Shown piece after piece: positions 9,890 through 42,158 of a DNA stretch of 42,721 bases; within the stretch, counting starts at the first letter, position 1; every line of letters begins with the position of its first letter. A program made the translations under genes and the position numbers. Origin of the DNA: Bradymonadales bacterium (GTDB lineage Bacteria; Bdellovibrionota; UBA2394); the NCBI GenBank assembly GCA_007693605.1, contig REDG01000021.1:1-42721 (forward strand), in the 5' to 3' direction. A model generated the notes under the pieces. The model saw nothing but the letters and a program-made list of their open reading frames with translations, did not search any database and was not told the origin of the DNA.

Positions 9890-11893
9890 TTGCAAACGCC
9901 AGAATCGAAATCTCAAATTTTGACCCCAGGGCATCTAGAGGAGCTTCTCTCGCACCTAGAGGCCTGCCTGTGGCAAAAACAGGCTGTAGATGGCCATTGG
10001 CACTACCCCCTCGATGACTCTGTGACGATGAATGCGGAGTATATTTTCTTTCTGTTTTGGATGAATCTGGACGAGAAGGATCTGATTCAGAGGCTCGCAA
10101 ACTTCCTCTTGCAGCAGCAGAATGAGGACGGAAGTTGGTCTCTCTATTATGGCGGCTCTCCTCATCTCAGCAGCAGCGTAGAAGCTTATCTTGCTCTTCG
10201 CTTGGCGGGATTCTCAAAAGAAGACCCAAGAATGTTGAAGGCGGCCCAGGCCATTCGAAGCGAGGGAGGCCCTCCGCGATCTCGAGTTTTTACGAAGATT
10301 TGGCTAGCACTGTTTGAACTCCATCCCTGGGATGGAGTCCCCATGATTCCTCCTGAGATCTTGTTGAATCCAAAGGGAAGTCCCTTTCACATCTTAGAGT
10401 TTAGCTATTGGTCGCGTTCCGTTATCATTCCTTTGACGATTCTTTTTCACATCAAGAAAACTTACGGAGTGAATTTTGATCTCTCTGAACTCTACCCGAG
10501 CAAAGACTCTGAGCAAGATCTTGGCTATGCGCCCGTGATTCCGGTGGATGAGAGCTGGATTCACAAGTCTTATCAACAAAGTCTTCAGTGGATAAAGTGG
10601 GATTCTCTTTTCTTTGGATTGAATCGGGCCTTTAATTTTTATGAAACCGGCCTGACCGTGAAACCTTTTCGTCAACTTGCCGTTCAGAAAGCAAAGACTT
10701 GGATTTTGGAGCATCAAGATGAATCCGGAGATTGGGGCGGCATTATGCCCGCCATTATGAATTCCCTGATGGCGCTGCGGGCTTTGGGCGAGGAGCTCGA
10801 TAGCGCACCAATCGCCAAGGGTCTTCAGGCTCTGAAACGACTATGTCGGGGAGAGAGTGATTCAATCCGAAGCCATGCACACGAGTCTGAAGAAACGGTC
10901 TGCCTCCAGTCTTGCGTTTCTCCTGTTTGGGATACGGCCCTGGCGACTCTTGCCCTTCTTGAAAGTGGAGTGAAGCCCACAGACCCCCGCCTTCAACGAG
11001 CGAAGAGCTGGCTATGGTCACAAAGGATCACGCGAAAAGGGGATTGGATTCACAAGTCTTTGATCTCTCCTCATGAGCCGACGGCCGCCTGGTGTTTTCA
11101 GTATCATAACGATTTTTTTCCTGATCTGGATGATACGGCTTTAGTGATTTTTGTCTTGCACCGCCTGGGAATGGGTCTCGAAGAACTGGAACCCGCCCTT
11201 CGCTTCGTGTTTGGAATGCAGAACCGAGATGGAGGTTGGGGAACTTTTGATCGCGAGAACACTCAGTGGATTCTGAACGAGATCCCCTTTGCGGATCTCC
11301 GTTCGCTCATTGACCCTTCAAACCCCGATGTCACGGGTCATTTGTTGGAAGCTCTTGGCGGACTGGGGCTCTCTGACCGCCGAGAGGTTCGCGCAGCCGT
11401 GAAGTATTTGAAGTCCTGCCAGCGGCCTGGAGGCTCCTGGTATGGTCGCTGGGGAGTGAATTTGTTGTATGGAACTTGCGCGGCGACGGTTGGGCTGCGA
11501 GCGGTTGGAGAGGCTCAAGATTCAGAGTGTCTTCAACGGGCGGCTGAGTTTGTATTGAAACAGCAGAATCCTGACGGGGGCTGGGGCGAAGACTGCGACA
11601 ACTACCTGCCCGAGACGCAGAGGGCTGAGGGCAAATCAACTCCCAGTCAAACCGCCTGGGCTCTTATGTCTTTAGAGGCTTGCGGCTTTCAGGACAGAGA
11701 GAGAAAGGAAGCGGTTGATCGAGGAATTGAGTTTCTAAAGAGTCGCCAGATTGAAGACGGACTCTTAGAGCCCGAGTTTACGGGCACAGGCTTTCCGAGA
11801 CACTTCTACCTTCGCTACGACGGCTATCGGCTCTACTTCCCCCTGATCGCCCTCGGACGAATCCAGTCGAGTTCGAATTCAAGTTCCTCCTGA
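9890..11893 (+). CDS. shc: Squalene-hopene cyclase
   Basis: DxDD motif (FPDLDDTA), QW repeats (QNEDGSW, QNRDGGW, QRPGGSW, QNPDGGW) and GTGFPRHFYLRY. TTG start. Confidence 0.93.
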   Translation: MQTPESKSQILTPGHLEELLSHLEACLWQKQAVDGHWHYPLDDSVTMNAEYIFFLFWMNLDEKDLIQRLANFLLQQQNEDGSWSLYYGGSPHLSSSVEAYLALRLAGFSKEDPRMLKAAQAIRSEGGPPRSRVFTKIWLALFELHPWDGVPMIPPEILLNPKGSPFHILEFSYWSRSVIIPLTILFHIKKTYGVNFDLSELYPSKDSEQDLGYAPVIPVDESWIHKSYQQSLQWIKWDSLFFGLNRAFNFYETGLTVKPFRQLAVQKAKTWILEHQDESGDWGGIMPAIMNSLMALRALGEELDSAPIAKGLQALKRLCRGESDSIRSHAHESEETVCLQSCVSPVWDTALATLALLESGVKPTDPRLQRAKSWLWSQRITRKGDWIHKSLISPHEPTAAWCFQYHNDFFPDLDDTALVIFVLHRLGMGLEELEPALRFVFGMQNRDGGWGTFDRENTQWILNEIPFADLRSLIDPSNPDVTGHLLEALGGLGLSDRREVRAAVKYLKSCQRPGGSWYGRWGVNLLYGTCAATVGLRAVGEAQDSECLQRAAEFVLKQQNPDGGWGEDCDNYLPETQRAEGKSTPSQTAWALMSLEACGFQDRERKEAVDRGIEFLKSRQIEDGLLEPEFTGTGFPRHFYLRYDGYRLYFPLIALGRIQSSSNSSSS

Positions 11894-11998: not shown

Positions 11999-14347
11999 CT
12001 AGTTGTTAGGCCCCTGTTCGGGCTCGCCCCCATACTGATCAAAATCTCCACTGTCCGGTGAGTTCTGGGGCACCACGTGAGGGTAGCCCTCAGGATAGAA
12101 GTTCTTGCTTTGCCGCGATCGAGAGTCCTCCCGAAACCAAGCGTCTTGCCATGTCAGCAGTTGAATCTCTGCGTGAGGGCCGACGATTGCCAGCGACTGG
12201 ACCCAACTACTCAGTCCTTCGAGAGCATAAGGAAGTTTTAGCAAAGTAAAGGTCCCCACATTCACGATACGATGATCTCTCTCGACGGTATGGGTGTGAC
12301 CAAAGACCATCGCGTCGACACCTTTTCGAAAGCTTGCAACCGAACCCTTCGCTCCATTCGCGCCCACATGGCCGTGTAAGCCAAGCTCCACCTCTCGACC
12401 GGGCGGTCCCACCTGATAGGTTTCGCCTCGATTCAGAAAGCGCATCTGGGCCTTTGCCTCTTCATTTAGAAACTTATTCAGTCCTGCATGAAGCGGATCG
12501 AGGGCCCCGACTCGATCTTCCGGGGCTCTCTTTTGATCCTTTAGAAAATCCACAAAGACGACCGTCAGCTCCGCTCCAATTCGAATGTTCTGTGGCTCAT
12601 CAATGAAACGACCGTCGTTGAGGTAACGATGCAGCATATTGTCATGATTGGAGTGAACCACCACGATTTCAGCCCCATGAGAAATGCTGGTGAGCCAGTT
12701 CACAAATTCAGCAGCCTCCCTAATCTCATCTTCCAGATTGAATTTTCCTTCTTCAGCCAATACCGCTCGATTCATTTTTCGGTTGGCATCGTGTGGGCTA
12801 ATCGAAAAGGCACTAAAAAGATCGTGCAGCACAATGCGCTTAGGCCGTAGAAGCTTGATCAGTTTGGGCAGGCTCTCCAAGAGCTTCGGATCTGTTTCTC
12901 CGACATGGATATCTCCTAAGACAAGGGCCTCAGCTTGAATCTCATAACTTCCAGTCGCCGTATAGAACCGATTGAGATCTGTGAAGCCTTGAGCCTCAGC
13001 CACATATTCAATATGTCTGGCAAAGAAATGCCCCTGATCTTCGGCCTTGCCGGAAGCCGCTCGTTTGGTATTGGCTTCAATCAAGATGGCGCCAATGACA
13101 TGATCATGGGTGGCAATTTTCGCCACTCGGTCTTGAATCAATTTCTTGCCCGCATATCGCCCCACCGTAATCGAGCCCGTGGTCCAGTTCATATGGGGTC
13201 GTTTATCATTGTGTAGCGTGGGAGTTGTTGTGAGCATCATCTTCGGAGATCCAAAAATTTGAGACTCTCCACGGCGACCCATCCTCTGAAGACCTGTTAA
13301 TGATTTGATCTGTCGATCGATGATCTTCGTGTCGTTTAGGGTGAGATAAGGGGTCAACTTATGGGTATGAGTCACTACATGAACTCTCGGATGATTCAAC
13401 AGAGCGGAATCAAGCCCAGTGGTCACCAAGTTTACGGGGCGCACCAGAATCGGAAGATCTTTCTCTTCTGCCATACGAAGCAAAGCGGCAAAGGCCTCAG
13501 CCACCACCGGCTTTCCTGCTGTGGCAGAAGTCAGAATGGCGCCTCCCTTCTTGACAAGCTCTGCCAGTGCAGCCTCCTCTCTTTCAATTCCAAAGAACTC
13601 CGTGTCGATGACGGACTTAAAGCTGTTGGGGTTTTTCTTGAAGGCCTTTTCTTTTAGATCCGGCCAATCGGTAAAGAGAACCTGAGAGGCCAGAAGCTCA
13701 TGAAAATCCCCCATTGAAATGCCGAGCACTTCGGCCGTCTCTTGAGCGGTCGGCGTCCGCCCGGTCTCTCTGGCAATCCTCGTGTAGGCCGTCAGAACTT
13801 TGTTCCCAATCACCTCAAGATCACGGGCTCTATCCGAAGCCAAAATCTCCCAAAGGGAGTGGCCTGAAAACAGAGCAGTCTGAAGAAATTCTAGGCCTTC
13901 TCCGACGAGCGCCAGTTGCTCTTCCTCTGTGGGCTCTCGCAGCTCTTGCTTCATGAACTTCGCAAGCTCCCCGATGATTCTCTTCTCCAAAGATCCTAAA
14001 ATCTCAGGAAAGGATTCATAGCCAGAAAGAAAAAGCTCTTCGAGATTCTTCGGAGTCGTCTTGCTTGAAAAATATCGCTTGAGGGCGGCCTGCGACACCC
14101 CATTGTGTTCTGCAAACTCTTTGAGGCTGGGTAGACGAGAATTCTTTGCTACCCATTTCAGCAAAGCCTCTTCGAGAACTGTCGTTTGATCAAACAGCAG
14201 TTCCCGGCTGACTCCGGCCCTCTCCCCAAGCTCCTCTAGGCCCACGCGGCACTTCGCTTCCAAATGAAGCTCTACAGAAGAAATGAAGAGGCTTCCCAAA
14301 AGAAGCCCAAGCCGAAGCCATTTCAAGCAAACTTTAAATGATCCCAC
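11999..14347 (-). CDS. Predicted exported calcineurin-like metallophosphoesterase/nuclease, phage T5 A1-like, with N-terminal HTH-like repeats
   Basis: GTG start with GGAGG at 14356-14360 and a signal-peptide-like N-terminus. Metallophosphoesterase motifs are GDIH (12905-12916), HD, SNHD (12641-12652), HGH and GHTH (12290-12301). A1-like blocks include ILTSA, TTGSIT, HDHVIGA, FFARH, FTDL, HGHVGANGAKGS and SSW. Confidence 0.75.
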   Translation of the reverse strand: MGSFKVCLKWLRLGLLLGSLFISSVELHLEAKCRVGLEELGERAGVSRELLFDQTTVLEEALLKWVAKNSRLPSLKEFAEHNGVSQAALKRYFSSKTTPKNLEELFLSGYESFPEILGSLEKRIIGELAKFMKQELREPTEEEQLALVGEGLEFLQTALFSGHSLWEILASDRARDLEVIGNKVLTAYTRIARETGRTPTAQETAEVLGISMGDFHELLASQVLFTDWPDLKEKAFKKNPNSFKSVIDTEFFGIEREEAALAELVKKGGAILTSATAGKPVVAEAFAALLRMAEEKDLPILVRPVNLVTTGLDSALLNHPRVHVVTHTHKLTPYLTLNDTKIIDRQIKSLTGLQRMGRRGESQIFGSPKMMLTTTPTLHNDKRPHMNWTTGSITVGRYAGKKLIQDRVAKIATHDHVIGAILIEANTKRAASGKAEDQGHFFARHIEYVAEAQGFTDLNRFYTATGSYEIQAEALVLGDIHVGETDPKLLESLPKLIKLLRPKRIVLHDLFSAFSISPHDANRKMNRAVLAEEGKFNLEDEIREAAEFVNWLTSISHGAEIVVVHSNHDNMLHRYLNDGRFIDEPQNIRIGAELTVVFVDFLKDQKRAPEDRVGALDPLHAGLNKFLNEEAKAQMRFLNRGETYQVGPPGREVELGLHGHVGANGAKGSVASFRKGVDAMVFGHTHTVERDHRIVNVGTFTLLKLPYALEGLSSWVQSLAIVGPHAEIQLLTWQDAWFREDSRSRQSKNFYPEGYPHVVPQNSPDSGDFDQYGGEPEQGPNN

Positions 14348-14534
14348 AAGTAGCCCCTCCCGATAGAATACAGAGGAGCTATATTGAGAGGCTCAGAAGT
14401 CCCCCCACAATCACTGTCCCAAAAAAGAAATCTTCGCTCCCCTTGCATTCCGATTCCTGCAAACAGTTCATCGAAGGAGACCGCGGCGTGTCAACGCTTT
14501 GATTCCAAGGCCCGGAAACTTTACCCAAAATAAA

Positions 14535-14567
14535 CAAAGCCCGTAACGCGGTGCGCAACGGGCTTTG
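14535..14567 (-). terminator. Intrinsic terminator (possibly bidirectional)
   Basis: 10-bp stem CAAAGCCCGT/ACGGGCTTTG with T-rich tails on both strands, 30 bp past the stop of the 14598-15140 gene. Confidence 0.75.
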
Positions 14568-14597
14568 CTTTCTTTCGAATCTCGGTTGTCTTATGGA

Positions 14598-15140
14598 TTA
14601 GAAATAATAACGAAGTCCAACATCTCCAAACATCGACTGAGTAAAGCCAATCCCCGATTTTTTCACTAAATCAATCGTGATTCCGGCTGAACTTTGAATC
14701 GCAAAATGGTTGTCACGAAACGGAAAGATTTCGAAACCAAAATAAGGCAGCTGCAAAACCACTCCCGTTTCAACATCGCTTCCGCTCTTCAAAAAGAAAC
14801 TCCCTTGAACAAAGAGATTCAGATGCTCCCAAAATCGAGAGTCTCTGACAATCAGTCGGTGAATGTCGTAACGAAAGCTGGGCCCGACAAGAAATTGACG
14901 AAAGTTGCGGGTCATCCCAAAAAAAGCCTCAACCTGCATATCTTTAGCGATTCCGTAAGAAGCGGAAACTCCGTGAATCTGCTGAGCCCCCAACCAGTCA
15001 CCATTACTGGTCACAAAGCCGTTGGTGAAGACCTGCTTGTAGCCGCCACTAATTTTATAAGAAAGGTCTCGCGCATCCAGCTGAACAGCAAAGATTCCGA
15101 GACCAAAAAAAAGGATAAAGAAACGAGAAGATATTTTCAT
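14598..15140 (-). CDS. Small outer-membrane beta-barrel protein
   Basis: Signal peptide, about 8 amphipathic strands and C-terminal GLRYYF (Bam signal with terminal Phe). Confidence 0.7.
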   Translation of the reverse strand: MKISSRFFILFFGLGIFAVQLDARDLSYKISGGYKQVFTNGFVTSNGDWLGAQQIHGVSASYGIAKDMQVEAFFGMTRNFRQFLVGPSFRYDIHRLIVRDSRFWEHLNLFVQGSFFLKSGSDVETGVVLQLPYFGFEIFPFRDNHFAIQSSAGITIDLVKKSGIGFTQSMFGDVGLRYYF

Positions 15141-27753: not shown

Positions 27754-30291
27754 GTGACGGACACTGCTGTTCCAAAGAGAATTGATCGATATGATTTGGT
27801 CGACCGAATCGGCTCGGGTGGCATGGGGCTCATCTACAAGGGCTTTGACACAAAGCTGAAACGAAATGTTGCCATCAAAATGGTTTCAGATCGAGTCAAA
27901 GATGCGGCCGTTCGACGCAATATTCGAGAACGATTCTTTAACGAAGCACGAGCCGCAGGCGCCCTCTCTCATCCGAATCTGGTTCAAATCTACGACTTTG
28001 GTGAAATCGAAGGCGTTGTTTATATTGTGATGGAGTACATCGAGGGGGAAACGCTTGAGCAGCTTTTAAAGTCCAAAGGCCCCTTGAACATCGACCAGTT
28101 TTTACGGATCTCAAGAGAGGTGGCAAACGGTCTGAGCTTTGCACATAAGCGGGGGATTGTTCACCGAGATATCAAACCTTCGAATATTATGATTGAAGCC
28201 GATTCTGGGGTGGCAAAGATTCTGGACTTTGGAATCGCCAAGTTCGTCGATGAAGAGGAGATGAAGCTCACCTCAACTGGAATGGTTCTAGGAAGTACTC
28301 ATTACCTGTCTCCAGAACATATCACGGGAAAGAATCTGAACAATCGAAGCGATATCTTTTGTCTGGGAACCGTTCTCTACGAAGCAGGCACGGGCACACT
28401 CCCCTTCAGAGGCAGCAACTCGAGCACGATTCTCTATAAGATCGTCAATTTCGACCCGCCCCCAGCACACCACAGTCGCCACGACTTTCCGGAAAAGCTT
28501 TCAGGAGTGATCTCTCAGTGCATGCAGAAAGACCCAGAGGCCCGTTATCAGAAGTGTGAAGACTTGATTGAGGCTCTAAACGGCTTTGAAAAGTCCCTCA
28601 TCACTCCAAGCAAAGAGGCCGCCAAATCAAAAACCTCTGGCGCTCAAATCTACAGCCATTCTTACTTCGTTCGAGACAGTCAGCTGCTCAACGCTCTGGT
28701 GACCGAGGGGCGACTCGATCGAGATCTGGCCATGAAGTACCGAGGAAAATCCCTCTACGAAGCCCTCACGCGAGATGCTGTTTTGCCCGAAGATGATATC
28801 GCCTTTGTTTGCTCAGACCTTCTGAATCTTCCCTGGATTCCTCGAGGTCGCCTGAAATCCCTTCGTATTGATCCAAGTCTGAAAGACCTGATTCCGACTA
28901 AACTATTGAAGAAACACCATTTTGTTCCCTTTTTTAAAGACGATAGCCGTTCGGTCTTGAGTATGATCATTGACGGAGTGAGTGACTTTCAAGCGCTTCC
29001 AGAAGTCGACAAGCTCTCACAACAGTACCAGCTTCAACTCTATGTTGGGGCTAGAAGCGTCATTCACACTCTCATTCGAAATCGATTTGAAAATTTGGAT
29101 TTAGCCACAACCACAGGCACGCATGAAGAGTCTCTAGACTCTAAAGCCTTCGGAGATCGAAGAGTTCTGTTGGTTGAGCCACAGGAACACTTTCAACAGG
29201 CGATTGTGAAACTTTTCAAAGGCTTTGAACCCGCCATCACGATTGTAGACAATTTGAAAGAGGCTCGAGAGCGCGTTGAGTCTGAAAAATTTCATCACAT
29301 CTGGGCCTCTAGACCCGTTATGGGCGACGAATTGGCTTTTGAGTCGATTGTGATTCGAACGAACCCGAGCTGCGATCTTCGATTTTACGATCACCTGGGC
29401 GAAGAGATTCTCGAAGACTCTATTCACTATTCAAAGTTTAGAGATTTCTTTGCCCGAGTCTTGCAAGAGTTTCTCAAGAAAGGCTCGCTCGAAGATCGAA
29501 AAGTCTCTCAAAATTTCGCGTCGCTGGCGGTTAGAATCGCGCGCGTGGAAACTCAAAATCAAAAGGATTTAGACGAGGTCTATTTTTCTGCGCTCTTTTA
29601 CAAATGGGAGAAGCTCTACCCCAATGAAGACAATCTCTCAGAGCTTTTGTTCGGAATTTATAGGTTCCGACACATCCGCGCCTCTGTTGGCGAGAGGTTT
29701 GACGGACGGGGCCCTATGGCTTTGAAGGGACGCTATATTCCACTTGCTAGTCGAGTGATCGCAGCGCTTTCAGTTCTCGATGGCATTAAATCCGACCTGA
29801 AAGATCTAAGCCTTGAAGAGACTCAAAGCCTTCGAGAGAAACTTTCTCGATTTGCTTCAAAGCAGCTTGACCCCGTGATTGCTGCAGCCATTCTCGAAAT
29901 GATTCGACCCGTTGCCGAGAAAAAGGCTTCGAAGAAAGTTGCCATTGTGGACTCTGATCTAGAGTATTCCAGACAGCTGCAAGCCCTACTGAAGGGCATC
30001 TCGGCAGAAGCCACCGTCTATTCTGACGGAGTTTCAGCATTAGAAGCCTTTCAACAAGAGAAGCCCGACCTCATTGTGAGCGAAGTCGTCTTGGCTAAGC
30101 TGGATGGCTTTGCGCTCGCTTCGAGAATTCGAGCGAACGAACTTCTGAAGTCGATTCCCCTGGTTTTTGTTTCCCAATCAGAGCAGCCCGAACACTCCGT
30201 CAAGGCGCTACAACTTGGAGCAAGTGACTTCATTTCGAAGACCTCTGAACCGCAGTTTATAGTCACAAAAATCGAACGCTATCTGAAATAG
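27754..30291 (+). CDS. Ser/Thr protein kinase with MshEN-like, receiver-like, degenerate HD-GYP and C-terminal receiver domains
   Basis: Kinase motifs GSGGMG, VAIK, HRDIKPSN, DFG and YLSPE. MshEN-like LIPTKLLKKHHFVPF. HD-GYP-like GERFDGRGP..LKGRYIPLASRVI. Receiver KVAIVDSD..PDLIVSE..IPLVFVS..GASDFISK. Confidence 0.88.
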   Translation: MTDTAVPKRIDRYDLVDRIGSGGMGLIYKGFDTKLKRNVAIKMVSDRVKDAAVRRNIRERFFNEARAAGALSHPNLVQIYDFGEIEGVVYIVMEYIEGETLEQLLKSKGPLNIDQFLRISREVANGLSFAHKRGIVHRDIKPSNIMIEADSGVAKILDFGIAKFVDEEEMKLTSTGMVLGSTHYLSPEHITGKNLNNRSDIFCLGTVLYEAGTGTLPFRGSNSSTILYKIVNFDPPPAHHSRHDFPEKLSGVISQCMQKDPEARYQKCEDLIEALNGFEKSLITPSKEAAKSKTSGAQIYSHSYFVRDSQLLNALVTEGRLDRDLAMKYRGKSLYEALTRDAVLPEDDIAFVCSDLLNLPWIPRGRLKSLRIDPSLKDLIPTKLLKKHHFVPFFKDDSRSVLSMIIDGVSDFQALPEVDKLSQQYQLQLYVGARSVIHTLIRNRFENLDLATTTGTHEESLDSKAFGDRRVLLVEPQEHFQQAIVKLFKGFEPAITIVDNLKEARERVESEKFHHIWASRPVMGDELAFESIVIRTNPSCDLRFYDHLGEEILEDSIHYSKFRDFFARVLQEFLKKGSLEDRKVSQNFASLAVRIARVETQNQKDLDEVYFSALFYKWEKLYPNEDNLSELLFGIYRFRHIRASVGERFDGRGPMALKGRYIPLASRVIAALSVLDGIKSDLKDLSLEETQSLREKLSRFASKQLDPVIAAAILEMIRPVAEKKASKKVAIVDSDLEYSRQLQALLKGISAEATVYSDGVSALEAFQQEKPDLIVSEVVLAKLDGFALASRIRANELLKSIPLVFVSQSEQPEHSVKALQLGASDFISKTSEPQFIVTKIERYLK

Positions 30292-30575
30292 TTTTCAGAA
30301 CTAGTCTCGATGTAGATGATCTCGTTCGCTCGTACCAAACCGAGCTCCTCTCGAAAACGAAACTCCTCGGCACTCGGATGACTCTGCCGAAACAGATCGA
30401 CCTTCCGGCGAAGCTCTTGGTTAGAGGCCTCAATCTGTCTGATATGGACCTGAGTCTCAGACATCTGCCGTTTTAACTGTCGCAGCTCCCAAAACCCGTT
30501 CTTGGTAAACAAGCTCCCCACAATGGGAATGGAGAATGCGAGACATAGCACAAGACTCAGTCGAGAAAAGATCAT
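30279..30575 (-). CDS. ftsB: Septum formation initiator (FtsB/DivIC family)
   Basis: N-terminal TM followed by NG, a coiled coil and REELGLVRANEIIY. Confidence 0.75.
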   Translation of the reverse strand: MIFSRLSLVLCLAFSIPIVGSLFTKNGFWELRQLKRQMSETQVHIRQIEASNQELRRKVDLFRQSHPSAEEFRFREELGLVRANEIIYIETSSENYFR

Positions 30576-31243
30576 GAGTAGATTTCGAAGAAAGCCTCAA
30601 GGCGTCGAACGCTCTCCCCTTTGAGATTTTGAAACATCACCCCAAGACCTTTGGCATCTCCTTCGACTTCTTGCCGAACGACAACGCCATCACATTCAAA
30701 GGGCTCCGAATCGCCAAAGAGTTTAAATTTCAACTTGATAATCGCATAGAGTGGAAAACTCAGCGGCGTTCTCAAAAAAATTCCGGTCTCACTCAAAGTC
30801 GTACTCCAAGCATGATAGGTCTCATCATAGACTCGAAACTCAATCTTCTGCTGAAACCACACCCGACGAGAAGAGCGTGACTCACCCGCTTGGGGCTGAT
30901 CCTGCGGCTTGGTCATCGACTGCAAATGAAGCACCACCTCTTCCGGTGGAAGATCAATGGGCAGATATCCGGAGCTTCCCCGCTTTCTTAGAGACTTCAA
31001 ATCAGCACTGTTCATATCAGGATCAATGAAAGACAAAATCGAAACTCGTCCTTGACTCATTTGGGCATCAAGGGAGTTCAGAATCTTAGAGTTCCTTGAA
31101 TCAATCAGAATGAAGTCTGGCTGCTGGCTGATGGCCTCTGTCATATCCTTGGCATTGGCAAAATTAAAGCCCCTCTCGCGCAAACTCGCCCCCAAGAGCT
31201 CGTTTTCGACTCCTACACCAATTACTTGTTTCGACTTGGTCAT
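30572..31243 (-). CDS. Receiver-like / PilZ domain protein
   Basis: RxxxR (RSSRR), TLSETGIFL and GLGVMF, with N-terminal QPDFILID. Likely start is ATG 31243. Confidence 0.8.
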   Translation of the reverse strand: MTKSKQVIGVGVENELLGASLRERGFNFANAKDMTEAISQQPDFILIDSRNSKILNSLDAQMSQGRVSILSFIDPDMNSADLKSLRKRGSSGYLPIDLPPEEVVLHLQSMTKPQDQPQAGESRSSRRVWFQQKIEFRVYDETYHAWSTTLSETGIFLRTPLSFPLYAIIKLKFKLFGDSEPFECDGVVVRQEVEGDAKGLGVMFQNLKGESVRRLEAFFEIYS

Positions 31244-31338
31244 GGTCCCATTATCAACGAAAAACAAGGATTTAGCCAAGCACGGAGCCATAATTGGGCG
31301 CCGCGTTAGGCTCAGGGGCAGCATTCTTCGACTTTCGA

Positions 31339-31344
31339 TATAAT
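31339..31344 (+). promoter_or_regulatory. Sigma-70 -10 box
   Basis: Perfect TATAAT 14 bp upstream of ATG 31359 in a divergent intergenic region. No clear -35. Confidence 0.45.
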
Positions 31345-31358
31345 GAAGCTTGGGGGAA

Positions 31359-33326
31359 ATGACTGTGGACCGACCTGAACGGGAGGGGGACGGAGCGCCA
31401 GAGCTCAGTCTTTCAGACATTCAAGACATTAAAGTTCCGGTGGACTTACTTGAGCTCATCCCCCTTGAGCTTTGCAAAAACTACCAAATACTCCCCTTGC
31501 GCCATGATCCAGAAAGCCAATCACTGAGTATTCTCTACTCTGACCCCGATTTGCTGGAAGACTTCAAAACCAAGTTCTCAGATCGCTGGGCCTACTTTAG
31601 CCCTTACCGGATGAACAGAGCGGAACTCACGACCATGATTCAAGAACTCTCGGAAGAGGACGGAGCGAGCCCCGCCCCCGAAGAAGGCGCTTGGACGATT
31701 GCCCTCATTGAGCCCGATCTCGAATCAAGGGAAGCCATGAAGCAGCTTTTGACCTCTCAAAGCTATCGTGTGGTCTGCTTTGAAAGTGAGGCCGACTTTC
31801 GCAAGAAGATTATCGATCTCTCCGAAAAGATCAGAGAAGAAGAAGACTTGGTCAATCTCGCTGAAAGCCATCGACTCGTACCTTTTCAGTCTGTCCTGGC
31901 ACGAAGGAGCTGTCTTGAGACAGCCTCAACCTTTGGCGACTTTGTATGGGCCCACTTCAACCACCTTCGACTCGCCATTCTGGAGGATCGTTGGTTGCAC
32001 GGAATCATGGAGCAGGCCCTGTTTCGGGGACAAGCAGAAGTCGATGACTTAGGATTTCACCTCAGACACGGCGACTACTACCACGCTGCGATGGAATGCT
32101 TGAAAAAGGGCAGCACCTTTCAGGCTGTCGAGCTCCTTGAACAAGTGGTCGAGAGTGACGCTCATTTTATTAAGGCGAAGCTCCTGCTTGGAAAGGCCTT
32201 TCTACAAAAGAAAAACTTCAACAAGGCTCAAAAGCACTTTCAACAAGCCTACGACTTTTGGTGCGAAGACCCCGAAGGCCTGGTGGACGAAAGCGTCGTA
32301 AAGCTCTTGTACTATTTGGCGTATTCTTTTGAAAAGATGGGCCGGCTTGACGACGCCCTGAAGCTCTACGAACGAGTCGCCGCCGAAAACCCCCTGTTCA
32401 GAGAAGTCGGACAGAGAATTGTTCAAGTAAAAGAGCGGCGGAAAAAGGCAATCAAAGACGGAGAGCGCCGAATGGGAATGCCCGCCTTTTCAAGAAAGAA
32501 AAGAACAGACGAACTCCGCTACGAACGAATTGAAGAGATCGGAAGGGGCGGAATGGGGACCGTCTATCGCGCAAGAGATCAAGTGCTCGGCAGAGAAGTC
32601 GCCCTGAAGATTCTAAACTCTCACTTTAAACACGACGAAAAGATTGTAGAAACTTTTCTTCGAGAAGCCAAATCGCTTGCCGCGCTCAATCACCTTAATA
32701 TCGTGACCATTTTCGACGCCGGAATTGAAGAGGGGAACTATTACATATCGATGGAGTTTATCGACGGAAAAACCGTTCGAGAGCTTTTGAAGAAAAAGGG
32801 CTTCTTTCGACTAGGCACAACACTAGCGCTTAGTAAGCAGGTTCTGAAGGCCCTGGCCTACGCCCATTCAAAAAAGGTGATTCACCGTGACATCACGACA
32901 AACAATATGATGCTCACAGAAACCAAGGTCGTTAAACTCATGGACTTTGGACTGGCTCGCGTCGTTAATCAGCTCCACTCCGAGCAATCCATCATAGGCG
33001 GCACCCCCTACTTTATGTCTCCAGAACAGGTCGAAGGCGCCCCTATTGACCACCGAACGGATATCTACTCGTTTGGTGTCTGCCTCTTCGAGATGCTGAC
33101 AGGTCGTGTGCCATTTCCGATGGAGAATCCGGGATATCACCACCTTCACTCCGCCCCGCCAGACCCGAGAAGTTTGAAATCCGATTTGCCAAGCACAGTG
33201 GCAGAGATTATTTTGAAGTGCTTAGAAAAGAAACCTGAAGATCGATATCAGTCGGCCGACGAACTTCTCAACCGCCTGCGCGATGTTCAAGATGTAACAG
33301 TGAACGAGCGAGAGCCAAAGAAATGA
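31359..33326 (+). CDS. Ser/Thr protein kinase with N-terminal MshEN-like, receiver-like and TPR domains
   Basis: LLELIPLELCKNYQILPL (T2SSE_N-like), IALIEPD, TPR helices, then GRGGMG, VALK, HRDITTNN, DFG and FMSPEQ. Confidence 0.88.
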   Translation: MTVDRPEREGDGAPELSLSDIQDIKVPVDLLELIPLELCKNYQILPLRHDPESQSLSILYSDPDLLEDFKTKFSDRWAYFSPYRMNRAELTTMIQELSEEDGASPAPEEGAWTIALIEPDLESREAMKQLLTSQSYRVVCFESEADFRKKIIDLSEKIREEEDLVNLAESHRLVPFQSVLARRSCLETASTFGDFVWAHFNHLRLAILEDRWLHGIMEQALFRGQAEVDDLGFHLRHGDYYHAAMECLKKGSTFQAVELLEQVVESDAHFIKAKLLLGKAFLQKKNFNKAQKHFQQAYDFWCEDPEGLVDESVVKLLYYLAYSFEKMGRLDDALKLYERVAAENPLFREVGQRIVQVKERRKKAIKDGERRMGMPAFSRKKRTDELRYERIEEIGRGGMGTVYRARDQVLGREVALKILNSHFKHDEKIVETFLREAKSLAALNHLNIVTIFDAGIEEGNYYISMEFIDGKTVRELLKKKGFFRLGTTLALSKQVLKALAYAHSKKVIHRDITTNNMMLTETKVVKLMDFGLARVVNQLHSEQSIIGGTPYFMSPEQVEGAPIDHRTDIYSFGVCLFEMLTGRVPFPMENPGYHHLHSAPPDPRSLKSDLPSTVAEIILKCLEKKPEDRYQSADELLNRLRDVQDVTVNEREPKK

Positions 33327-39190: not shown

Positions 39191-40657
39191 TTACGGAGCG
39201 CGGGCCCCCTCAGAATCACTAGAAACTGGGTCTAGCTCGGAACTCCCAGAGGCTGGCCCCACTGGGGAAATCGGATCAAAACTTTCGGACAGCAAAAGCT
39301 CTCGGAGAGAGGCCAAAATTCCTTGCCGCTCGGCCACCGTCGCCGGATCGCCTAGCAGTTCATAGTTTTCTAGCATGGGTCTTAAAGCCTCTCGAATAGG
39401 GGCCGCCAACCGGGCTTGAGTTTCAACAATCTCCCGCATCTCTTCAGGCGACCTCCAGCTAGAAAACGGACGCCACTCTTCTCTGGGAGTTTTGCTATTG
39501 CGATGGTCATTTTCGAATTGATAAACCTCCCCGATATAGTGCTTAATTTGCTCAAAAAAATCTAAAATTGCCTTTTCTAAAGCCGTCAACTCCTGGAGAA
39601 CACGAGCCTGGTCGTGAGGGTCAAACGAATCTACCTGCTGCTTCAAAACCTTGATCATGCTGTCCGATCGTAGAAGACTAGAATAAATTTCAAGCAGGTG
39701 TCCCACATAGATTTCTGAAGGGCCTTCTCTGGCTTCAATGTATGCATGATGCGCTAAGGCCGATTCGAAGCCAATGAGCGCTCCAATGGCCTGAGCGATC
39801 GGCTCATCCCGACTGAAACGCTTTGAATAGTTTTTAAGCAACAAACTAGACTCCTCGAATGCCCTCTCTTTGCTCTTCGTACCAAAAACCTTTGAATAAA
39901 TCTTAAGAAACCAAAGAAGCTTCTTGAATCTACCCTCTTTGCTCTGAGGTTTTGCCCAACCTACATAAGGCGATTGAAAGCTCAGCAGGAGAGATCCCCT
40001 GAAATAGGCATGAACGGCCTCATGCCGAAGAGTCATATCTGGCCGAAGATAAAGAAGATCAGCGCTATTCAGTAGTAATGAGTGCTGCCCCCAGCCCAGA
40101 TCATGAGGAGCAAATGCGCCTAGGATGCCATGCTGATCGAGACGATTCTGATCAAACCTCACCTCCGTGCCAATTGAGCCCAGAAGAAAGAGGAGTTGAT
40201 TGAACTGGTTTCGATTAATCTCAGAAGTCTCGCTAGGGATTTCAAACACAATCACTCCATCCTCAGTCGTGCTGAAATTCACATCCGTTTGCAGTAACAT
40301 CCATTCACGGACTGCTTCGCGCAAATTCGCACTAGCCTGTTCCATTCGCTCCTGTGCCCCCTCGAGAGTTTTAGGAATCGGCTTGTTGGGATTGTTTTCT
40401 CGAAATGATCTCTCCTCAGCAGCAAAATGTATCGCCCATAGATTTCCATTGATCGCGTCCCCAAGCTTTCTGCGACTGTGCTCTCTGATGGAGAGCCCCT
40501 CAATCGTTAGCTCTACAAACACTCCAGCGCAGAAAGACTTGCCGCTCGAAGACAGCACGGGATCAGCTGGAAAAGCCCACGACAAAACCAAAGCAATGGC
40601 TAGCCACCCGCCGCCATCCGCTTTCAACCAGCCTGAAATTCGCAGAAATCTCGCCAC
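39191..40657 (-). CDS. Orphan predicted secreted protein with HEXXH zinc-metallopeptidase motif
   Basis: Signal-like WLAIALVLSWAFPA and motif TLRHEAVHAYF. Likely start is GTG 40657 or TTG 40660 rather than 40780. Confidence 0.6.
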   Translation of the reverse strand: MARFLRISGWLKADGGGWLAIALVLSWAFPADPVLSSSGKSFCAGVFVELTIEGLSIREHSRRKLGDAINGNLWAIHFAAEERSFRENNPNKPIPKTLEGAQERMEQASANLREAVREWMLLQTDVNFSTTEDGVIVFEIPSETSEINRNQFNQLLFLLGSIGTEVRFDQNRLDQHGILGAFAPHDLGWGQHSLLLNSADLLYLRPDMTLRHEAVHAYFRGSLLLSFQSPYVGWAKPQSKEGRFKKLLWFLKIYSKVFGTKSKERAFEESSLLLKNYSKRFSRDEPIAQAIGALIGFESALAHHAYIEAREGPSEIYVGHLLEIYSSLLRSDSMIKVLKQQVDSFDPHDQARVLQELTALEKAILDFFEQIKHYIGEVYQFENDHRNSKTPREEWRPFSSWRSPEEMREIVETQARLAAPIREALRPMLENYELLGDPATVAERQGILASLRELLLSESFDPISPVGPASGSSELDPVSSDSEGARAP

Positions 40658-40669
40658 CAAGCAAAAAGA

Positions 40670-40899: not shown

Positions 40900-41772
40900 T
40901 CATTCGTAAAAACGGCTTTCCCATTTGCCCTGCAATCGATTTTCATCATCGGGTTGAGGGGTTAGCTTGGTCTTTTTTTCCGAATCTTTCAACTCGAACT
41001 CCTCTGGGGTCAAATACCCAAGAGACGAATGAATTCTCTTTTCGTTGTAAACCTCATCGAGGAATCGAGGCAAGTTCTCAATCACATCCAAGTACGTTTC
41101 GTAGTTTGCGAGATACACCTCCTCTTGCTTTAACGTTTTCATAAAGCTCTCTAGAAATGCATTGTCATACGGATTGCCCTTGGCTGAATTGGAAATCTGA
41201 AATTCATGCTGCCGAAGAAGCCTCACATACTTTTTGCAAAGATATTGAACCCCTCGATCAGAGTGATGAATAACGCCCGGCGCTGGCTTTCTTCGCTCAA
41301 TCGCCATCGTCAGAGCCGCCGCGGCAAGATCGGCATCAATATTTTTTGAAATTGCCCAGCCGATCACCCGACGAGAGAAAAGATCCAGAATGACCGCGAG
41401 ATACACGAAGCCGTTATCTATCCGAATGTACGTAAAGTCCGTCGCCCAAACTTGATTGAGACCAGTGATGACCAGACCCTTCACGAGATTCGGATACACG
41501 CGATAATCGTGCTTCGAGTCCGTGGTCACCACGAAGGCCCTTCTGATTCTGGCGTGCAGCGAATACTTCTCCATCACTCTACGAAGACGCGTTTCTCCGA
41601 CTCTGATTTGTTCCCTACGCCTGAGATAGCGAAGTAGTGTTCGATAACCTGATCTCGGAAAATCGACCCTGACCCTCTCAATCGCATCTCGAAGATCGGC
41701 GTCACTCTTTTCTCGAATCTCGCGCGGCACTTTCGGCTTGTAATAATAACTCGACGATGAAAGCCCAATCAT
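40900..41772 (-). CDS. IS3 transposase OrfB (DDE integrase core)
   Basis: [28 protein letters not shown] and [15 protein letters not shown]. Confidence 0.95.
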
Positions 41773-42158
41773 TTGGCACGCCCTTTGCTTCGATCCAACT
41801 CTCGCTTCATGGCGATGTACCCACTCGATTTTTTCTCGTACGCTGAGTTCGGCTGAATTTTTTTTAAAAGGTCGATGGCCAGCGCTTGATCGGCGATCTT
41901 CTCCTTGGCCGCCATTAACTCTTCTTCTAGCTCTCGAATCTTTCGGGCCTGCTCAAATGAAACGCCTTCTGTCGTCTGAATCTCTTCGATCCTATCCACT
42001 CGCCTTTGATTCTCTAACTGCGTCTTCCAATTGTATATCTGCCCAGGGTCAAGACCCTCAGCGTCTGCAATCTCTTTCGCTGATTTCGTCCCCGAAAGAT
42101 ACTCCTGAACAATTCTTCGCTTATACTCTAATTCAAATTTCTTTCTGCTTTTACCCAT
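41769..42158 (-). CDS. IS3 transposase OrfA (HTH + coiled coil)
   Basis: [30 protein letters not shown], a coiled coil ending IDLLKK, and RBS TAAGGAG. Confidence 0.92.
41858..41868 (-). other. -1 programmed ribosomal frameshift site
   Basis: TTT-A8 on the minus strand. The -1 frame is open ([31 protein letters not shown]) and runs into the OrfB Met. Confidence 0.8.

Follow-up and report, generated by a model that had tools for sequence, protein, structure and literature searches.

The 42,721-nucleotide (nt) contig REDG01000021.1 of a Bradymonadales bacterium (assembly GCA_007693605.1; phylum Bdellovibrionota), which we refer to as the window, carries on its minus strand a gene (11999..14347) for a predicted exported metallophosphoesterase of the phage T5 A1 family, 782 amino acids (aa) long when read from the GTG at 14347. 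A Shine-Dalgarno-like GGGAGG lies 8 nt upstream of this GTG (14356..14361, minus strand), which agrees with the good ribosome-binding site that an earlier sequence-only reading of this DNA, silent about the strand, had given to a 782-aa open reading frame (ORF). The alternative start TTG 14326, located 7 codons later and used in the database record P0002 (775 aa), has no comparable Shine-Dalgarno-like site, and a hydrophobic stretch near the N-terminus is retained from either start. Each motif that the reading had quoted was found, in the order claimed (782-aa numbering): ILTSA at 271, LTGL at 350, SQIFGSPK at 362, TTGSIT at 389, HDHVIGA at 414, FFARH at 441, FTDL at 455, LGDIH at 477, LHDL at 507, SNHD at 566, HGHVGANGAKGS at 658, GHTH at 683, and SSW at 713. 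The A1-family gene is single-copy in the source genome (2.19 Mb, 90% complete); its GC content is 0.51, and its GC at third codon positions is 0.53, versus 0.45-0.57 in 15 neighbours.

Profile and structure comparisons both led to phage A1. The A1 core, residues 232-735 (12143..13654, minus strand), matched the PHROG 1745 profile (“DNA transfer protein”) at E = 4e-75 over nearly the whole model (positions 51-536 of 542), far above chance, as a match of this type occurred in 0 of 14 control genomes. The protein also matched 1112 phage records, many of them annotated as A1 or DNA transfer protein. In a fold search with predicted models on both sides, the best structural matches were viral A1-like models (Foldseek E = 3.4e-47), an Atlas model named “T5 A1 family protein” reached a TM score of 0.90 by target, and the fold of the whole core was common to the query and the A1 models. 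Aligned with the Bf23 ortholog of T5 A1, the ~500-aa core matches lengthwise, with about 25% identity to Bf23/T5 A1 over the catalytic half. Within the calcineurin-like catalytic domain (aa 468-739; 12131..12946, minus strand), as delineated by alignment and fold search, the eight site residues D479, H481, D509, N567, H568, H658, H684, and H686 are identical in Bf23 A1 and eight other phage proteins, and the full site is present in 9/9 cultured-phage rows and 75/82 exported rows of our alignment. Judged from its sequence, the protein is a T5 A1-family member with a complete two-metal site: The earlier assignment to this family is upheld by the near-full-length profile alignment, the phage records, and the A1-like models that topped the fold search, and the claim of intact calcineurin-like metal-binding motifs by the aligned site residues. 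Mre11/SbcD and PolD DP1 nucleases share 12-17% identity with the protein, with LpxH and other non-nucleases scoring equally high, and no Rad50/SbcC gene lies in the window.

Unlike T5 A1, the protein adds to this core a signal peptide, a Cys tag, helix-turn-helix (HTH)-like modules (by our own profile), and a C-terminal tail. Signal peptides were called throughout by our own hydropathy rule together with conservation. By this measure, residues 1-31 (14255..14347, minus strand) resemble a Sec-type signal peptide, with a basic n-region (K5, K9, and R12), a hydrophobic stretch whose hydropathy averages 2.47, and LEA followed by K at the putative cleavage site, with no twin arginine and no lipobox. 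Beyond residue 40, the most hydrophobic 19-mer averages only 1.18, so that no later membrane segment is predicted. The same layout recurs in 30/30 of the best phylum loci; across 53 exported homologs, a Sec/signal peptidase I layout was seen with a net positive n-region in 49 and a permissive AxA-like site (own rule) in all 53, and signal and Cys are retained at about 30-45% identity. The signal-peptide-like N-terminus of the sequence-only reading therefore stands in its basic residues, hydrophobic stretch, LEA junction, and conservation, and does so from either start, on the basis of our hydropathy rule. Cys33, the sole Cys of the predicted mature protein, begins a C-x3-hydrophobic motif (14225..14251, minus strand) that we call the Cys tag. 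A Cys located 3-22 residues past the hydrophobic stretch is found in 51/53 exported homologs, in 47 as C-x3-[LFIVM], and beyond residue 60 of the 53 proteins Cys accounts for 29 of 36,606 residues. A lipoprotein lipobox ([LVI][ASTVI][GAS]C) closing the hydrophobic stretch occurs in 0 of the 51 Cys-bearing homologs.

Downstream of the tag, three tandem modules of a long helix plus an HTH-like unit (aa 59-105, 118-149, and 175-244; 13616..14173, minus strand), suggested by weak Sigma70_r3 and TetR_N matches, the structural model, and our profile, probably form a DNA-binding arm. Two or three such modules occur in 48/82 exported rows and none in 8/9 cultured phages (Bf23-type A1). The C-terminal tail (FYPxxYP ... 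DQY; 12002..12106, minus strand) is typical of the exported clade, with an FFxxxYP-type motif in 50/82 exported rows versus 0/107 other rows. Both the three HTH-like modules and the Cys tag had escaped the earlier reading.

Homologs are found throughout the phylum, albeit in a minority of genomes: 46 of 401 Bdellovibrionota genomes contained a match at E ≤ 1e-20, and 7 of the 13 other members of the source genome's family had one. A signal-peptide-like start was present in 42 of the 46 matching genomes (41 by the hydropathy rule, 1 by eye) and absent from the remaining 4. The four closest loci among species genomes are labelled Oligoflexia or Bdellovibrionota. Among 158 stored proteins, a set from the top of a search by an exported-rich profile (best 150 of 2356 matches) that is no census, 65 had a signal, 64 of these with a Cys soon after. 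Outside the phylum, the closest relatives were A1-like proteins without a signal from large and uncultured phages, such as that of Ochrobactrum phage vB_OspM_OC; IMG/VR yielded at least 572 relatives among 600 candidates, of which the best 80 share 24-36% identity in the best segment. These usually carry one N-terminal HTH-like module and, unlike the query, showed a signal at the first start, tag, or tail in 0/79 of the long ORFs among the best 80, one being flagged from an internal codon only.

The main tree, computed from a core alignment of 189 rows from which the fragments P0004, P0134, P0135, P0151, P0159, and L008/L052 and duplicates were left out, contained a branch with Shimodaira-Hasegawa (SH) support of 100 that set 81 of the 82 exported rows, together with the signal-less P0123, apart from the T5-type group and a large uncultured-phage group. 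P0123 has the tail and may be miscalled. In subsamples, this branch received support of 93 (67 viral rows), 99 (SH approximate likelihood ratio test under a mixture model), and 99. The sequence-only reading had proposed to check by phylogeny whether signal-bearing chromosomal homologues nest within phage sequences; we obtained a single supported branch, and nesting is unsupported because the midpoint root was placed differently across four trees. We infer a phage origin, and with it a transfer from phage to cell, because the spread of the family is mostly viral and the exported forms have added parts. The exported A1, as far as sequence comparison goes, is an old phylum-wide lineage and no one-off capture. 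One protein, P0089 (573 aa, on a 4.9-kb contig), has signal and Cys and no tail and was placed among viral rows (support 98), which points to a second, apparently independent gain of signal and Cys by a viral-type A1. Signal-less A1-like forms from four phylum genomes and from a Bdellovibrio plasmid fell outside the exported branch. The latter, pBdHM1 of the cultured Bdellovibrio sp. HM001 (161 kb; L220:2849-4777), is possibly a phage-plasmid and encodes a 642-aa protein with an intact site. Short signal-less homologs were also seen in Woesearchaeota, Pacearchaeota, and Buchananbacteria (L016-L019, L021, and L022), and these mostly cluster together.

In most exported loci, the A1 gene has a companion. 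A co-oriented gene for a DxD phosphatase-like protein of ~360-470 aa lies directly upstream in 37/42 exported loci (L011:6754-7851 and 36 others, by profile and alignment), often with a 4-nt overlap, and in one further genome a contig end truncates it. The first Asp of DxD is invariant in 24 full-length partners, as is a Cys close to the C-terminus, and a Cys lies within the last 30 residues in 37/37 partner proteins. No family model matches the partner, and comparisons left a HAD fold unconfirmed; its profile matches 54/401 phylum genomes, many via a distant half-length relative only. The arrangement resembles the T5 pair of A1 and Dmp, which takes DNA to nucleosides, whereas relatedness of the partner to Dmp was undetectable beyond DxD (hhalign probability 5.7%). 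Within 3 kb of the A1-like genes of uncultured and large phages, no partner gene was found. The partner is missing at the locus in the source genome and three family relatives, and a search of these four genomes (completeness 76-95%) gave no full-length copy, so that the source genome has apparently lost it. A1 thus bears the tag N-terminally and its partner bears it C-terminally, and the four partner-less loci retain it on A1, so that the tag outlives partner loss.

The setting of the gene is chromosomal and stable. Its convergent downstream neighbour is shc, the squalene-hopene cyclase gene (9890..11893, plus strand; family match, conserved in relatives), and its upstream neighbour encodes a conserved 180-aa exported barrel-like protein ending in YYF (14598..15140, minus strand), which ends the mpl run. 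The latter gene adjoins mpl in 7/7 relatives read and has no Pfam or NCBIfam match; we treat both neighbours as markers of the site rather than as parts of the A1 system. A hairpin 3′ of it (14532..14570, minus strand; z = -5.37, with 0/200 shuffles equally stable) is a probable terminator between the mpl run and the A1 gene and is absent from the list of a consensus terminator scan. The site between the mpl run with its 180-aa gene and shc is occupied by the A1 gene in 7/7 family relatives that have it, one locus being split over two contigs, one gene pair being inverted, and some having inserted genes; in four named loci from other lineages the surroundings differ and consist mostly of housekeeping genes, with a recombinase and an FtsK-like gene a few kilobases off in one of them. 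We conclude that this family passes the gene on at one fixed position, and that its occurrence across the phylum is patchy. A scan of the window's 33 other ORFs gave no match to a PHROG family named for a virion, packaging, or lysis gene (E ≤ 1e-8). Whereas T5 A1 belongs to a pre-early takeover context (A1-A2-dmp in the terminal repeat; cf. Bf23), the query has housekeeping neighbours only, without A2 or a terminal repeat. A prophage remnant was rejected in view of the missing phage neighbours, native composition, intact site, and stable locus. The earlier description of a gene alone between shc and the mpl terminator, with no phage genes, holds for the neighbours, the hairpin, and a non-prophage setting kept across the family; “alone”, by contrast, describes a derived state, since the phylum-wide lineage usually has the upstream partner. 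Elsewhere, the window holds housekeeping and signalling genes, among which two Ser/Thr kinases, each with an MshEN domain, flank an opposite-strand PilZ gene (27754-33326, plus strand), and an IS3-type transposase in two ORFs (40900-42158, minus strand) lies near the contig end.

The Cys tag is shared with other proteins of the genome. Just past the hydrophobic stretch, the motif occurs in 50 of 367 soluble, non-lipobox, signal-bearing proteins, compared with 13, 15, and 13 of the same 367 in three control windows further downstream. Pfam matches were available for 17 of the 49 other tagged proteins: Rrf2, Cmk, and RNase J are false filter calls; S9, S46, and Wzi belong to ordinary exported families; and a further seven place a cytoplasm-type domain after a convincing signal (PrkA, SpoVR+DUF444, ATP-grasp, GNAT, NUDIX, DnaJ, and Pol-beta-type). 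In a control with 25 PrkA loci, the signal was present in 9/9 intact close copies, with the motif by rule in 8/9 and Walker A in 8/9; one close copy was cut by a contig end, 14/15 housekeeping copies were signal-less, and the last was flagged from an upstream codon. Enzymes that depend on the cytoplasmic cofactors ATP and acetyl-CoA make little sense in the periplasm; the tag on such enzymes therefore favours delivery into another cell. At the C-termini of signal-bearing proteins, the genome-wide count of the motif was not above controls. Several further observations concern the tag: A tagged, signal-bearing PrkA/YeaG and a SpoVR-DUF444 fusion lie ~5 kb apart on one strand (G000:C42:121534-132530; L161 and L162), with a signal-less PrkA-like copy on contig C30 of the same genome; a second signal-bearing protein of the window (39191-40660, minus strand; no Pfam or PHROG match) has its single Cys in a C-x3-hydrophobic tag; and several signal-bearing proteins on contigs C7, C16, C22, C65, and C70 end in a partner-like C-x3-hydrophobic motif.

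We put at about even the chance that the gene encodes a domesticated T5 A1-family member exported by a Bdellovibrionota bacterium for the degradation of prey DNA, a reading in which we infer export, DNase activity, substrate, target cell, and predatory lifestyle. The A1-family fold and the complete two-metal site, already evident from the comparisons above, would supply the catalytic core. Sec export with cleavage after Ala31 would carry the enzyme across the membrane unfolded, which is why the producer's own chromosome could be spared without an immunity gene. At the newly exposed N-terminus, the lone Cys-helix tag would then direct the enzyme to the prey compartment or anchor it there, as it would other tagged enzymes. 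Here, the three HTH-like modules would grip double-stranded DNA and the calcineurin-like domain would cut it, in the way that A1 apparently cuts DNA in infected Escherichia coli, and in most relatives the co-encoded exported DxD phosphatase-like protein would convert the nucleotides set free to nucleosides, the role of Dmp in T5. According to a recent preprint, A1 alone degrades the E. coli chromosome and is both required and sufficient for the loss of host DNA in vivo, and Dmp converts nucleotides to nucleosides (10.64898/2026.04.02.716235). Bdellovibrio bacteriovorus, of the same phylum, is described as secreting signal-bearing DNases into the bdelloplast: Among its signal-bearing nucleases Bd0934, Bd3507, Bd1244, and Bd1934, two are released there, and, unlike the query, these are not called A1-family or calcineurin-like in the descriptions given (PMC7925074). 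Searches of the open literature, which takes in few subscription journals, listed no title or abstract opening that describes exported A1 homologs or the Cys tag. More speculatively, Bdellovibrionota may possess an undescribed addressing system that relies on one Cys-x3-hydrophobic helix, at the mature N-terminus or the C-terminus, to send Sec-exported cytoplasm-type enzymes into prey, and to which a phage host-destruction nuclease would have been recruited at least twice (main branch and P0089).

Other readings are less probable. The source genome has pilus and secretion ATPases but retains hisD and purF, so that the case for predation comes from its phylum, and the same export signal and partner would also fit an exported nuclease or nucleotidase that breaks down DNA from biofilms or the surroundings to obtain phosphate and nucleosides without prey contact. 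B. bacteriovorus DNases are reported to enter the medium in host-independent growth as well (PMC7925074). We nevertheless regard such scavenging as rather improbable, as it leaves unexplained the same tag on ATP- and acetyl-CoA-dependent enzymes, whose cofactors would be lacking outside a cell. Small-molecule phosphoesterases tied with nucleases in the fold search, and T5 A1 orthologs have been predicted by Iyer et al. to act on cyclic nucleotide signals (PMC7824862); the protein might thus be an exported phosphodiesterase for small nucleotides, e.g., the prey's cyclic immune or stress signals, instead of a DNase. We consider this unlikely, given that A1 expression is reported to remove chromosomal DNA and spare rRNA in vivo, the only setting in which DNA loss was demonstrated (10.64898/2026.04.02.716235), and that HTH-like modules are retained and often multiplied in exported forms. 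The one conserved terminal Cys in each of A1 and its partner, whose genes often overlap, would suit an enzyme tethered by disulfide or lipid in the periplasm or at the surface and serving its producer, e.g., as a defence that destroys DNA entering from phages or plasmids, or one disulfide-paired with the partner phosphatase; the missing canonical lipobox, the position of the Cys 3-22 residues past the hydrophobic stretch, its retention in the partner-less loci, and its presence on unrelated proteins make this similarly doubtful. A miscalled start on a cytoplasmic protein, or a prophage remnant in decay, which the signal-less forms of four phylum genomes and the Bdellovibrio plasmid might suggest, is largely refuted by the position of these forms outside the exported branch, by the two starts that both precede the hydrophobic stretch, by the conserved signal and Cys, and by the intact metal site and stable locus.

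Delivery of an A1-family nuclease into prey would bear on how predatory bacteria reach prey DNA and which nucleases act on it, as those B. bacteriovorus DNases that have been tested are reported to be dispensable (PMC7925074). The lineage described here offers a candidate nuclease whose phage counterpart is known and which bears a short, mutable tag. Because they are made behind a signal peptide, natural A1 variants may be easier to produce than the toxic T5 A1, and would help to test whether A1 itself is the nuclease, a point left open in the T5 preprint (10.64898/2026.04.02.716235). If the addressing system proposed above is real, predators would shut down their prey with a phage takeover tool.
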